In this document: one piece after another, positions 44,034-50,474 of the stretch | How the letters are laid out: each line of letters starts with the position of its first letter | Position numbering within the stretch: position 1 is the first letter of the stretch | Assembly: GCA_048885325.1 (NCBI GenBank) | Contig: JBHLPZ010000002.1 | Location: 1-60,795 of the forward strand | Source of the DNA: Candidatus Odinarchaeota archaeon | GTDB lineage: Archaea > Asgardarchaeota > Lokiarchaeia > Sigyniarchaeales > SOKP01 | Direction of reading: 5' to 3' | Length of the DNA: 60,795 bases | Position numbers and translations under genes: made by a program | Notes under the pieces: generated by a model | Told to the model about the DNA's origin: nothing | The model's input: only the letters and a program-made list of their open reading frames with translations | The model's database searches: none

Positions 44034-44438
44034 TTAATCTCCTTGAATTTGTATAAACACTTTTCTATTTCTTGGACCATCATATTCAGCAAACATTAAT
44101 CCTTGCCAAGTTCCTAAAACTAATCTTCCATTATGTATTATTATATCTATAGAAGGCCCTGTTAAACTCGATTTTATATGAGCATCAGAATTTCCCTCCA
44201 TATGAGCGAATCTCGCACCTTGTGGAATCAGGCTTCCTAAAAAATTTATAATATCTTTCATTACTGCGGGATCTGCATTTTCATTAATGGTTATTCCAGC
44301 TGTTGTATGAGGTACAAAGATTCGACAAACACCTTCTTTTACACTAGATTCACTTACGATTTTACTCACTTCACTTGTAATGTTTACCAGCACTTCCCTT
44401 TTTGGAGTTTTTACCTTAAAATCTTTAAATAATATCAT
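44034..44438 (-). CDS. YjbQ/UPF0047 family protein (secondary thiamine-phosphate synthase-like)
   Basis: 134 aa. It has VPHTTAGITINENADP and the NSDAHIKSS motif. Confidence 0.75.
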   Translation of the reverse strand: MILFKDFKVKTPKREVLVNITSEVSKIVSESSVKEGVCRIFVPHTTAGITINENADPAVMKDIINFLGSLIPQGARFAHMEGNSDAHIKSSLTGPSIDIIIHNGRLVLGTWQGLMFAEYDGPRNRKVFIQIQGD

Positions 44439-46292: not shown

Positions 46293-47054
46293 TTAAAATT
46301 TGCCATGTTTGCCCTTCCCTTGAGTGAAATCCCTACTCCCTTGAACAAACTCACCACTTTCTAATGTTTTTAGGCCGAATTCAAATTCTTTTTTCATTGC
46401 TTCTTTTAAATTCATACCAAATTGTTCATAAGTGGATAACCTATCATTTTGCATACAAATTTGGGGAAATGATGCAATCTTGCTAGCTAATTTTTCAGCT
46501 TCTTCTCTCGCAGTTCCATCTTTTACAATTCTGTTTGCTAAACCCCAATCTAATGCTTCCTGAGCCGTTACTGGACGACCAGTTAAAATCATATCTAAAG
46601 CTCGACTTAAACCAATTAATCTTGGGAGTCTTACCGTTCCTCCATCAATTAAAGGAACGCCAAATCTTCGACAAAAAACACCAAAAATAGCACTTTCTTC
46701 GACCACCCGTAAATCGCACCATAAGGCAAGTTCCAGACCACCAGCAACGGCATAACCTGCTACAGCAGCAATTATGGGTTTAGAAAGCATCATCCTTGTC
46801 GGTCCCATTGGACCATCTCCCCCTTTTCTTATTCTATTGGGTCTTCCTTCAGTAATTGCTTTAAGGTTTGCGCCCGCACAAAAAACTCCATTTGCACCCC
46901 ACAGAACAGCAATAAGCGCTTTATTATCTTGTTCGAATTTTCTAAATGCATTAGCAAGCTCTAATGCTGTAGGACCATCTACAGCATTTTTCACATCAGG
47001 ATTATTAATAATTATAACGTAAACAGGATAATTAACTTCTATTTGTATTGGCAT
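46293..47054 (-). CDS. enoyl-CoA hydratase/isomerase (crotonase family)
   Basis: 253 aa. It has FCAGANL, IAAVAGYAVAGGLELAL and a C-terminal FTQGKGKHGKF tail. Confidence 0.8.
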   Translation of the reverse strand: MPIQIEVNYPVYVIIINNPDVKNAVDGPTALELANAFRKFEQDNKALIAVLWGANGVFCAGANLKAITEGRPNRIRKGGDGPMGPTRMMLSKPIIAAVAGYAVAGGLELALWCDLRVVEESAIFGVFCRRFGVPLIDGGTVRLPRLIGLSRALDMILTGRPVTAQEALDWGLANRIVKDGTAREEAEKLASKIASFPQICMQNDRLSTYEQFGMNLKEAMKKEFEFGLKTLESGEFVQGSRDFTQGKGKHGKF

Positions 47055-47151: not shown

Positions 47152-48240
47152 TTATTTTTGGTTTGCTAAATATTCATTCATTTCAACAAAACTACTTGTT
47201 CTTATTAAAGCTGCTTTGAGAAATTGGAATCCAATATCATATGTGGAACCATCTCCTCCAATATGAATGACCCATGGTATTTCTCTATTATATAAGCCTT
47301 TTGCTTTCATTATCTTTTTTGCTGTAATGATTCCATCAGCAACAGTAGCTCCTGATTCGAATAAGTGGTGAACCCAAGGCACGTTCCAAGAAGTCACATT
47401 ATCTTTTGAAGTAGAGACTTCAGAGCAACTTGTATTATTGATATAAATAATGTTATTTCCCGAAACAGCTTGAGCTGCTGTGGCGAGTTGATTAAGAACC
47501 ATGCCTGCTCCACAACCAGGACAGAGTCCATGACCTGGCTGAAGATGTTTTTGAGGCTCTAAACTTTTGCGATTCACACGATAGAAGTCTATTGGCTTTT
47601 CTGCACCAAACTTTTCAATAAGTCCTTTTAGCTTTTTATTTCTCTGTTCGGTAAGATAGATGATTTCGTCAATTTCTTTTTCCATAAATTTAGGTTTAAA
47701 TAAATGTCTAAATCTTCCCATAGATTTCAAATATTCAACAAACTTTTCCTTATCGATATCTAATCCACGATAATAAGTAAATATTGGAATACCATCTTCT
47801 ACTCTTATGGTATATAAAGGCCAATAGCCACAATCTGTAGCCAATTTTGATATTTCCAGAGCTGCTGAAGCTCCATGTCTCCAACCTCTCATGCAATCTG
47901 AGTATGCTTGAATAAATGCAGAGCCATTTGATTTCAAAGCATCTGCAATTTTTCCCATGAAATCTGCCGGATAAGCAGGATTAACTGTTGCTAGGAAAAG
48001 TTTTTTAGTTCCATAAAAAGCAAAGGGAGTAACCAGATCTTGTTTCACTCCAATTTTTCCTGGTATTTTTTCTCCCGCAGGTCCAGTAGTGGTAGAAGCA
48101 TATGGTGGAGTTCCACCGCTTTCTTGAATTCCAGTGTTCATAAAAGCTTCATTATCATAATTGAAAAATAACACATTAGATTTTTCTTCTCTACTGAGGA
48201 TATCTTCGAAATTAATCACATTTCTTTCTGGTTTTGACAT
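47152..48240 (-). CDS. 2-oxoacid:ferredoxin oxidoreductase beta (TPP-binding) subunit with its canonical halves in swapped order
   Basis: 362 aa. YDNEAFMNTGIQ is at residues 28-39, SDCMRGW around 116, and GRFRHLF at 175-181. PGHGLCPGCG follows at 235-244, C272, and GGDGSTYDIG at 328-337. The start is 4 nt after the alpha-subunit stop. Confidence 0.8.
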   Translation of the reverse strand: MSKPERNVINFEDILSREEKSNVLFFNYDNEAFMNTGIQESGGTPPYASTTTGPAGEKIPGKIGVKQDLVTPFAFYGTKKLFLATVNPAYPADFMGKIADALKSNGSAFIQAYSDCMRGWRHGASAALEISKLATDCGYWPLYTIRVEDGIPIFTYYRGLDIDKEKFVEYLKSMGRFRHLFKPKFMEKEIDEIIYLTEQRNKKLKGLIEKFGAEKPIDFYRVNRKSLEPQKHLQPGHGLCPGCGAGMVLNQLATAAQAVSGNNIIYINNTSCSEVSTSKDNVTSWNVPWVHHLFESGATVADGIITAKKIMKAKGLYNREIPWVIHIGGDGSTYDIGFQFLKAALIRTSSFVEMNEYLANQK

Positions 48241-48243
48241 CTC

Positions 48244-49470
48244 TTAATCCACTCCATAAATTTTTTGTTTAGTTTCTCTAACACCTAAGTATTGATAAAG
48301 CTCTCCTTTCATATCCGTAACAGAGGCCATTTTCTTTTTAGCTATATCAAATTCGTCTCTAGTCACATCTCTACCCCCTAAACCCACAATAAAACTTCTA
48401 AAGAGCGTTCCGAGAGGGTACAAGGCTGATGCAATAGACATTGAAAATGGCGGAAGCATACCATTTAATGAATCTGACTTCTCTAGTATGATCAATTTTT
48501 CAATATTATGCTCTTCAATAATTTTTCTTAACTCTTCGTAAGGAAATGGTCTATAAGCCCGAACTTTAATAAGCCCAATATCCTTGTTTTTTGTCATCCA
48601 ACTAATAATATTTCCACACATTGAACCCATTGTACAAAAGGCTATTTTTGAAGAATTATCCAAGTTATATGTTTCAATCAAGTTATAATCTCTTCCTGTT
48701 TCCTTCCTAAATGTTTTAAAAACTTCCCTCATTTGACTTAAAACTGGTTTTTTAGCTTCATCTAAATTCTTTCTCCCTTCCATAAAATAAGAAGGTGTAA
48801 CGATTCCACCCCAAGTACCTGGATTTGATGGATCAATTGTATCTCTTAGCTTTTTTGGAGTCATTTTTAAAACAGTTTCATCTGGAATAAGAGTTAATTT
48901 TTGAACTGAATGTGAAATAATAAAACCATCATGTACGAACATCGTTGGGAATAAAGAATCTTCAGAAATCATCACTGAGAGAATTGCAGCATCATAAGTC
49001 TCTTGAACATTTTCTGATACGATGCAATTCCAACCCATTTCTGAATTAGTTTCTGTAAATTCCCAAGCATTCCAAATGCTTAAATTAGGGCTATTAAAGG
49101 CTCTAGCACTTATCATCATAGTTAATGGGAGTCTCCAGCCTACTGCCATAGGTAATGCCTCAGTCATTAATAAATATCCTTGGCTAGCTGTTGCAGTAAA
49201 TGCTCTTGCTCCAGCTGCGCAGGCTGCTGTCGAGAAACTAATAGCTGCTAATTCTGATTCTACATTAACAAAAGCTGCCTTTAATCTTCCTTGATGAACA
49301 ACGTCAGATAGACCTTCTACTGATTGGGTTTGTGGTGTGATAGGAAAAGCACAAATTACATCTGGATCTGTCTGAGTCACACCTCCAGCGACGGCATAAT
49401 TTCCAATCATCGTAGTTGTTATTGGTTCTTTTATCTCTTTAAAAAATAATCTCATAGGTTCTATTGACAC
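48244..49470 (-). CDS. 2-oxoacid:ferredoxin oxidoreductase alpha subunit
   Basis: 408 aa. It has GNYAVAGG, FPITPQT, ESELAAIS, GARAFTATASQGYLLM, and a domain II. Confidence 0.85.
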   Translation of the reverse strand: MSIEPMRLFFKEIKEPITTTMIGNYAVAGGVTQTDPDVICAFPITPQTQSVEGLSDVVHQGRLKAAFVNVESELAAISFSTAACAAGARAFTATASQGYLLMTEALPMAVGWRLPLTMMISARAFNSPNLSIWNAWEFTETNSEMGWNCIVSENVQETYDAAILSVMISEDSLFPTMFVHDGFIISHSVQKLTLIPDETVLKMTPKKLRDTIDPSNPGTWGGIVTPSYFMEGRKNLDEAKKPVLSQMREVFKTFRKETGRDYNLIETYNLDNSSKIAFCTMGSMCGNIISWMTKNKDIGLIKVRAYRPFPYEELRKIIEEHNIEKLIILEKSDSLNGMLPPFSMSIASALYPLGTLFRSFIVGLGGRDVTRDEFDIAKKKMASVTDMKGELYQYLGVRETKQKIYGVD

Positions 49471-49472
49471 TT

Positions 49473-50474
49473 TTAACTACCTCCTTCTTGATCTTCTGGA
49501 ACAGCACAAGACGCTGGACCTTGTTTTAATCTTTTACTTATAGCATCTACTGGGCATACTTCAAGGCAATTTTGACATGACTTACAATGGAATTGGTCAA
49601 TACCTTTCATGTGCCATAGTCCATCTTCTCCCTTTTCTCTAACTATAGCAAAATCAGGACAAATATACCAACATTGAGCACAGTCAGTACATTTTTCTTC
49701 ATCCCAAATCATATCCCATTCTCCCCAAGAACCAGTATTAACCTGTTCACTTCCCATTTCTATAACATTTTCATCACAATACCAAACTCCTGCTTTATCA
49801 ACTTCTTTATATCCTGGCAATCCAGGGAATACTTGTTGCCAAGGTACTTTTGTATCAATCATAAAGTCGGGATCTAAACCAATATCGTAAACACATGTTT
49901 CCTCAATCGCTTGTTTTATTGCAGCAATATTTTTAGCCGCTAATTCTCCTTTAAAACGTCTCATTATAGCATCTGCTAGAGCTTCTATCGAAAATATAGG
50001 CATAACACGGATAATGCCACCTAAAATAATGGTATTAGTTATATTTCTACCCAACACATCTAATGCTATTCTGGTTGCATCGATTGTGCCAATATTAATA
50101 TCTTTTCTAGCAACAACATCTTGAATTTCTACTTGATTTAAAACTGTATTAATAATCAACCACCCTCCCTTAGCTAATCCAGCAGTTACATCTATTTCTC
50201 CTAAAAGAGAAGGATCTAATACAGCTACAACATGAGGGGCATACACTTGTTCATTTGTTCTAACTAGATCCTCATTAGCACTCAATCTCACATAACTTTC
50301 CGTAGGAGAGCCCATACGTTCCGCTCCGAACATAGGTTGACAAACACCATAACCATAAAAGGCTTCTACACATAAGTTTGAAGCTGTTACACCACCTTGC
50401 CCGCCTCTCGCATGAAATCGAAGATTTATGACATTCTCTTTTAATATTTCTTTTAATTGTTCAGCAGTTAACAT
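49473..50474 (-). CDS. 2-oxoacid:ferredoxin oxidoreductase gamma-delta fusion subunit
   Basis: 333 aa. The N-terminal gamma domain has RFHARGGQGGVTAS. The C-terminal delta ferredoxin has CTDCAQCWYICP and CKSCQNCLEVCP. Confidence 0.8.
   Translation of the reverse strand: MLTAEQLKEILKENVINLRFHARGGQGGVTASNLCVEAFYGYGVCQPMFGAERMGSPTESYVRLSANEDLVRTNEQVYAPHVVAVLDPSLLGEIDVTAGLAKGGWLIINTVLNQVEIQDVVARKDINIGTIDATRIALDVLGRNITNTIILGGIIRVMPIFSIEALADAIMRRFKGELAAKNIAAIKQAIEETCVYDIGLDPDFMIDTKVPWQQVFPGLPGYKEVDKAGVWYCDENVIEMGSEQVNTGSWGEWDMIWDEEKCTDCAQCWYICPDFAIVREKGEDGLWHMKGIDQFHCKSCQNCLEVCPVDAISKRLKQGPASCAVPEDQEGGS

Follow-up and report, generated by a model that had tools for sequence, protein, structure and literature searches.

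The window (the whole 60,795-nucleotide stretch of DNA analysed here, from contig JBHLPZ010000002.1 of the Candidatus Odinarchaeota archaeon assembly GCA_048885325.1) carries three tightly packed genes on its reverse strand, in the order gamma-delta, alpha, beta, whose products are related to the subunits of 2-oxoacid:ferredoxin oxidoreductases (OFORs). The first encodes a fused gamma-delta subunit of 333 aa (49473..50474, minus strand; domain III and the two-[4Fe-4S] domain V, recognised by Pfam POR and two 4Fe-4S motifs), and the second an alpha subunit of 408 aa (48244..49470, minus strand; domains I and II, Pfam POR_N and PFOR_II), for which the nearest solved structure is Methanosarcina acetivorans PorA. 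A sequence-only reading of this DNA had described both upstream genes as normal, and their domain content agrees with this. The beta gene comes last (47152..48240, minus strand; 362 aa, stop codon TAA), and its ATG lies 3 nt past the alpha stop codon. At window positions 48238-48246 (minus strand) alpha and beta share a reading frame, with a gap made up of the TAA and one codon (GAG). Fusion of gamma and delta, as in oxalate oxidoreductase, is conserved across all related operons seen. No further OFOR genes were found within the window. Downstream, and on the same strand, lie genes for an enoyl-CoA hydratase of the crotonase family (46293..47054) and for a UPF0047 (YjbQ-like) protein (44034-44438). 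Of 82 related loci, 44 have the hydratase close to the operon; the two genes recur in its vicinity in ~44 of the 82, and a link to acyl-CoA metabolism is possible.

In OFORs, TPP is bound between domain I of the alpha subunit and domain VI of the beta subunit, the proximal cluster site lies in domain VI and the other two in domain V, and domain III is the CoA site (PMC12337175). In the beta subunit encoded here, domain VI begins in what is canonically its middle. We delimited its parts with phmmer and with a canonical-beta HMM built from 47 stand-alone canonical beta subunits. A new N-terminal head (residues 1-17; 48190..48240, minus strand) is poorly conserved and is without significant match to canonical PorB; it is modelled as a short strand (6-10) and a helix (11-15). 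Residues 18-202 (47635..48189, minus strand) then correspond to the canonical C-terminal half (PorB profile positions 117-289), and hold the strand and NYDNEAFMNTGIQ, the TPP loops, the CxxGW cysteine, the GRFRHL motif and the native C-terminal helix. Within this half, YDNEAFMNTGIQ at residues 28-39 (48124..48159, minus strand) is the second half of the Mg-TPP motif, SDCMRGW at 114-120 contains Cys116 (47893..47895, minus strand), by alignment the fourth ligand of the proximal [4Fe-4S] cluster, and GRFRHLF lies at 175-181. A junction of ~22 residues (203-224; 47569..47634, minus strand; placed with the canonical HMM) connects the former C- and N-termini, and is modelled as the end of a long helix (187-211) followed by a strand (212-221). 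Residues 225-352 (47185..47568, minus strand) are the canonical N-terminal half (profile positions 6-123), with PGHGLCPGCG at 235-244, including the cluster ligands Cys240-x-x-Cys243 (47512..47523, minus strand), NNTSCSEV at 268-275, including the third ligand Cys272 (47425..47427, minus strand), both assigned by alignment, and GGDGSTYDIG at 328-337 with the helix that follows it. The first half of the Mg-TPP motif, G329-D330-G331 (47248..47256, minus strand), is thus placed 31 residues from the C-terminus, the stop codon lies 25 aa beyond GGDGSTYDIG, and the new C-terminal tail (residues 353-362 and the stop codon; 47152..47184, minus strand) is the least conserved part of the protein. The open-reading frame, its strand, its length and all motif positions of the sequence-only reading were correct when rechecked.

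Our comparisons confirm that the product of the open-reading frame at 47152-48240 is an OFOR beta subunit of the PorB type with its halves swapped, a genuine circular permutation, as had been proposed from the letters alone. In a phmmer search against all PDB sequences, two separate pieces matched M. acetivorans PorB (9bt4_C) in exchanged order, query residues 229-347 aligning to PorB 6-115 and query residues 22-193 to PorB 118-282, and the beta subunit of oxalate oxidoreductase gave the same two-piece swapped pattern. The NCBIfam models for PorB, OOR-beta and VorB each matched in two stretches, all far under cut-off (PorB scored 210.5 bits where 405 are required, and its two stretches were swapped), and the canonical-beta HMM again placed the halves in exchanged order, so that three independent comparisons support the permutation. 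The earlier prediction that a profile scan would return hits in swapped order was borne out by the NCBIfam beta models, whereas Pfam TPP_enzyme_C covered residues 18-111 only, equivalent to the second half of its profile. No collinear full-length match above cut-off was found among curated Pfam and NCBIfam models, and a BLASTP self-comparison of the protein revealed no internal repeat. Canonically, GDG is followed ~25-30 residues on by (D)N(E); in the permuted beta, GDG and DNE stand at opposite ends of the chain and in reversed order. The break therefore lies inside the Mg-TPP motif, between the helix after GDGxxxDIG and the strand with DNE at its end.

A chimeric join or a rearranged contig could mimic such a permutation, and we therefore looked for the same order elsewhere. 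A search of 5.8 billion clustered proteins listed 120 matches, among them at least 105 homologues of ≥350 aa with 52-90% identity, drawn from NCBI, JGI, ENA and Logan. Where the listed homologues carry an organism name it is always Asgard (Promethearchaeota, Lokiarchaeota, Thor-, Hel- or Hermodarchaeota), and every one named in NCBI is a 'hypothetical protein'. A scan with one genome per GTDB species found a relative in 141 genomes; the best 80 of these 141 were near full-length, in the same order, and 79-98% identical, the nearest being the MAG Yap2000.bin6.138 (98% identity in the GTDB scan, 97% by tblastn). When canonical PorB was used as a tblastn query, the C-half preceded the N-half on one strand in 84 of 84 fetched loci, so that the order sought in related genomes was present throughout, in independent assemblies. 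Order, length (~360 aa), junction and termini are identical across these 84 loci, which stem from many independent samples and assemblers. Their contigs reach 959 kb, and one permuted beta lies on a complete 3.34 Mb chromosome. The segment from residue 194 to 228, which contains the junction, has zero indels in 53 sequences, and dN/dS is ~0.03. Misassembly is ruled out by this recurrence at 84 independent loci, and we regard the chance of any assembly or gene-calling artefact as negligible. The gamma-delta, alpha, beta order was kept in every locus with enough flank, including those of homologues at 60%, 53% and 48% identity. Far from being a one-off, the permuted order is fixed throughout an Asgard clade.

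Apart from one oddly labelled MAG, the homologues and genomes found with the permuted order all belong to Promethearchaeota. The exception (L041, DATKTW010000155.1) is titled 'Candidatus Nanopelagicaceae bacterium' and carries an Asgard-type gamma-delta/alpha/permuted-beta operon, with a beta 84% identical to that of the window; the contig is probably a contaminant of the MAG or mislabelled. Among loci L003-L082, betas 79-90% identical to that of the window occur in MAGs under the names Hod-, Hermod-, Thor- and Odinarchaeota, surprisingly close for labels so different, so that the labels may be unreliable or the gene may have moved between lineages. The most divergent permuted lineage, at 48% identity, is locus L084 (ena:ERZ25039471 contig_49297), where the operon is called in short open-reading frames, with gamma in two pieces and beta as 278 + 40 aa, a pattern that resembles frameshift errors of that assembly rather than real decay.

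Conservation across the family is highest in the two cores and lower in the head, junction and tail. Among 53 diverse members, the four cysteines C116, C240, C243 and C272, which align to the canonical cluster cysteines (CxxC, TGC and CxxGW), are invariant, as are G329-D330-G331, N27-Y28-D29-N30-E31 and, in the NTG.Q motif, N35-T36-G37 and Q39. The claim that the catalytic residues are retained therefore holds beyond the window for all four cysteines and for both halves of the Mg-TPP motif. The permuted beta is under strong purifying selection, with a dN/dS of 0.024-0.034 (Nei-Gojobori) between the beta of the window and those of the three closest loci (L003-L005). An AlphaFold2 model of beta alone, made with the family alignment, has a compact fold (pTM 0.85, mean pLDDT 79.9) whose strand-helix pattern is that of an alpha/beta domain drawing on both halves, and model confidence is low only at the TPP loops (31-70) and at residues 275-281, both of them regions to which cofactor and partner give order in real OFORs. 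Foldseek against the PDB returned PorB 9bt4_C as the top match (E 5e-10, TM 0.42/0.51, 211 columns); since this aligner works in chain order, coverage was partial, and the comparison cannot probe the permutation itself. Together, the selection estimate and the invariant residues support the view that the protein is probably functional rather than a wreck.

To place the permuted proteins among their relatives, we searched 1.84 billion representatives clustered at 50% identity with HMMER and examined the best 150. Only two of these showed the C-then-N order (P0121 and the partial P0122), the other 130 two-half matches were in canonical order, and five short fragments matched the permuted family at 60-85% identity. 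The closest canonical relatives among the 150, at 43-44% identity, were an Altiarchaeales fusion protein and a Bathyarchaeia PorB. When 14 permuted sequences were cut and re-joined in canonical order, they became collinear with canonical betas, with the sole exception of a 35-residue insert composed of the new tail and the new head. The 14 de-permuted betas formed one clade among the canonical betas in 40 of 40 neighbour-joining bootstraps, and we infer that the permutation arose once. One Helarchaeota MAG encodes two diverged permuted betas, P0104 and P0121, and P0273, from the cluster of P0121, again lies in an operon ordered gamma-delta, alpha, beta, which implies that the permutation is older than the operon duplication. 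Among the canonical-type representatives, P0206 (413 aa) is a PorB-type fragment whose first ~215 residues are LAGLIDADG homing-endonuclease- or intein-like, and this insert sits exactly at the GDG / xFDIG TPP motif.

Both forms of beta can coexist in a single genome. In Promethearchaeota Hel_238_bin105 (L031, JABXKD010000022.1), a canonical-order PorB-type gene occupies positions 3-857 of the locus, upstream of the permuted operon and ~5 kb from it. The gene is truncated where the contig ends and shares 57% identity with a Bathyarchaeia PorB. In at least one genome the permuted enzyme is thus a paralogue, and its role could differ from that of a classical POR. Taken further, the permuted protein might be dead or repurposed, for example as a scaffold, with the canonical paralogue doing the POR work; the nearby canonical gene in L031 would fit this, as would the scores of alpha, beta and gamma-delta, all well under the NCBIfam equivalog cut-offs (alpha being nearest to PorA). 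We consider it very unlikely, as all Mg-TPP- and cluster-binding residues are invariant in members down to 52% identity, purifying selection is strong, and beta is always encoded with its own alpha and gamma-delta, in the paralogous copies too.

We are instead fairly confident, from the sequence comparisons, that the permuted beta serves as the working domain VI of a three-polypeptide POR-type OFOR in a Promethearchaeota clade. The chain starts with the beta-strand that has the DNE half of the Mg-TPP motif at its end, passes through the canonical C-terminal half with the fourth cluster cysteine and the GRFxHL tail, crosses the fixed-length junction of ~22 residues into the canonical N-terminal half (CxxC, third cysteine, GDG), and closes with the helix that canonically precedes the starting strand. 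Such a protein would be expected to fold into a normal PP-domain. By the usual alpha/beta topology, the GDG and DNE loops would lie at the C-terminal ends of neighbouring parallel strands, and the new termini in a helix-to-strand loop on the face of the sheet opposite the cofactor. Despite the ~300 residues between them in sequence, the two motif halves would then come together around Mg-TPP and, as canonical OFORs do, bind it against the alpha subunit. The predicted reaction is the conversion of pyruvate or another amino-acid-derived 2-oxoacid into acyl-CoA, CO2 and reduced ferredoxin. Enzymes of the OFOR class have been given a central place in Asgard catabolism, and in cultured archaea of the Lokiarchaeia type they are proposed to power the breakdown of amino acids (PMC7015854).

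How the halves came to be exchanged can be approached through the termini. The sequence-only reading had seen degenerate leftovers of one segment at both ends, and took them as the footprint of an in-frame tandem duplication followed by erosion of both ends. Part of this stands: N-terminal EEKSNVL (18-24) and C-terminal IRTSSFV (346-352) map to the same canonical positions, 117-123, with both HMMER and hhalign, and a terminal overlap of this kind is predicted by duplication with loss of the outer ends and not by a clean cut. The longer resemblances did not hold. We compared 106 family members with a sub-HMM of the canonical GDG...NTGIQ segment against 200 column shuffles, and neither the tail (NEYLAN against DNEAYMN, z = 0.69) nor the head (z = 0.13) scored better than the shuffles; greedy hhalign recreates the earlier relic alignment, at zero confidence. 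We therefore rejected the extended relics (NEYLAN/DNEAYMN, and the head against the GDG strand and helix) as no better than chance, and what is left of the proposed footprint is the seven-position overlap.

The same functional enzyme could have reached its present order by another route, either through a beta gene split at the helix/strand loop, with the pieces swapped and re-fused, or through the joining of halves from two beta genes. That head and tail, past seven residues, lack significant similarity to the segments supposedly duplicated speaks for such a route, and the length of the junction, approximately a native tail plus a native head, suits it, though this length fits duplication as well. 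Intermediates were looked for on both sides: neither a beta-beta tandem nor a naturally split beta was present among the best 150 of the 1.84 billion representatives, and the representatives with a C-half only, which we had considered as split genes, proved to be contig-end fragments, miscalled starts and one intein-bearing fragment. The missing split forms and tandems, and the overlap of both termini at canonical 117-123, count against these alternatives, as do the high scores of both halves against the same full-length canonical proteins (P0125, P0127, P0128 and P0129); a half-by-half score correlation is confounded by fragments and by top-match selection, and only these shared full-length top relatives are informative. 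We put an origin by either alternative at well below even, and tentatively favour in-frame tandem duplication with loss of both outer ends, for which the terminal overlap is the main pointer.

Among characterised enzymes, the nearest is the four-subunit archaeal POR, PorABCD, exemplified by that of M. acetivorans (PDB 9bt4), whose chain 9bt4_C is the best match for beta in both sequence and structure and whose chain 9bt4_B is the best match for alpha. The window's enzyme shares with it the TPP motif halves, the four cysteines, the GRFxHL tail, the POR_N/PFOR_II alpha and the POR gamma domains, and differs in that beta is permuted at the loop between the GDG helix and the DNE strand and in that gamma and delta are fused. 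Scores against the Por models are correspondingly low (PorB 210 vs. 405 bits; PorA_Arch 303 vs. 550 bits, score vs. cut-off). Oxalate oxidoreductase of Moorella thermoacetica (5c4i/5exd/5exe) likewise consists of three polypeptides with domains III and V in one subunit, and its beta is the second-best match, but its chain order is canonical. The window's subunits score far under the OOR models (alpha 136.7 vs. 500, beta 182.8 vs. 590, delta 68.6 vs. 230 bits), and nothing in the sequences suggests oxalate as the substrate. The single-chain bacterial PFORs (Desulfovibrio africanus 1b0p, M. thermoacetica 6cin) likewise use domain VI to bind TPP pyrophosphate and the proximal cluster, and it is detectable at E ~1e-9, but all domains are fused as I-II-III-(IV)-V-VI and domain VI is itself in canonical order.

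Rearrangement as such is not foreign to ThDP enzymes. The order of PYR and PP domains varies by family, a split-gene transketolase exists, and natural circular permutations and whole-domain re-ordering are known. The varying PYR/PP order and the split transketolase move or split whole domains, whereas in the permuted beta the break falls inside the PP-domain and separates one half of the Mg-TPP motif from the other; a break at this point of an OFOR appears to be new. The sequence-only reading knew of no described permuted OFOR beta; we likewise found neither a family model in Pfam or NCBIfam nor a paper, in a full-text literature search whose coverage excludes most subscription journals. A 2025 study of OFORs gives one common domain architecture for the whole superfamily, with permutation unmentioned (PMC12337175). 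Conceivably, this genuine arrangement has been described before, or is the norm in an OFOR subfamily that already has a name: JGI pipelines label members 'pyruvate/2-oxoacid:ferredoxin oxidoreductase beta subunit', and the reach of the literature search just mentioned leaves room for this. We think it unlikely, given that the protein in its full length is matched by no Pfam or NCBIfam model, that the named NCBI members without exception bear the name 'hypothetical protein', that full-text searches combining permutation with OFOR, PFOR, TPP, Asgard or Lokiarchaeota returned nothing relevant, and that PMC12337175, with its single superfamily architecture, makes no mention of permutation. On balance, we lean slightly towards a broader reading of the comparisons, that this may be the first recognised natural circular permutation inside a ThDP PP-domain, with GDG...NN split across the termini, in an Asgard-specific OFOR clade that has several paralogous operons and is possibly a major 2-oxoacid oxidiser of the Lokiarchaeia type.

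It appears that the TPP-binding domain of OFORs can withstand interruption of the chain midway through its signature cofactor motif, and an arrangement kept across many species and paralogues provides nature's own template for designing split or permuted OFORs. Profile pipelines see in these proteins half a domain or two sub-threshold pieces, and the NCBI name is 'hypothetical protein', so that metabolic reconstructions of Asgard archaea may score the OFOR as incomplete or miss it. This gap in annotation is of consequence, since the oxidation of 2-oxoacids is regarded as the chief source of energy in Asgard archaea (PMC7015854). The permuted order is also an easily recognised marker of one OFOR clade, which could help trace its history in Promethearchaeota, and, if the proposed model is true, the new termini and the fixed-length junction may form new surfaces that alter partner or substrate use.
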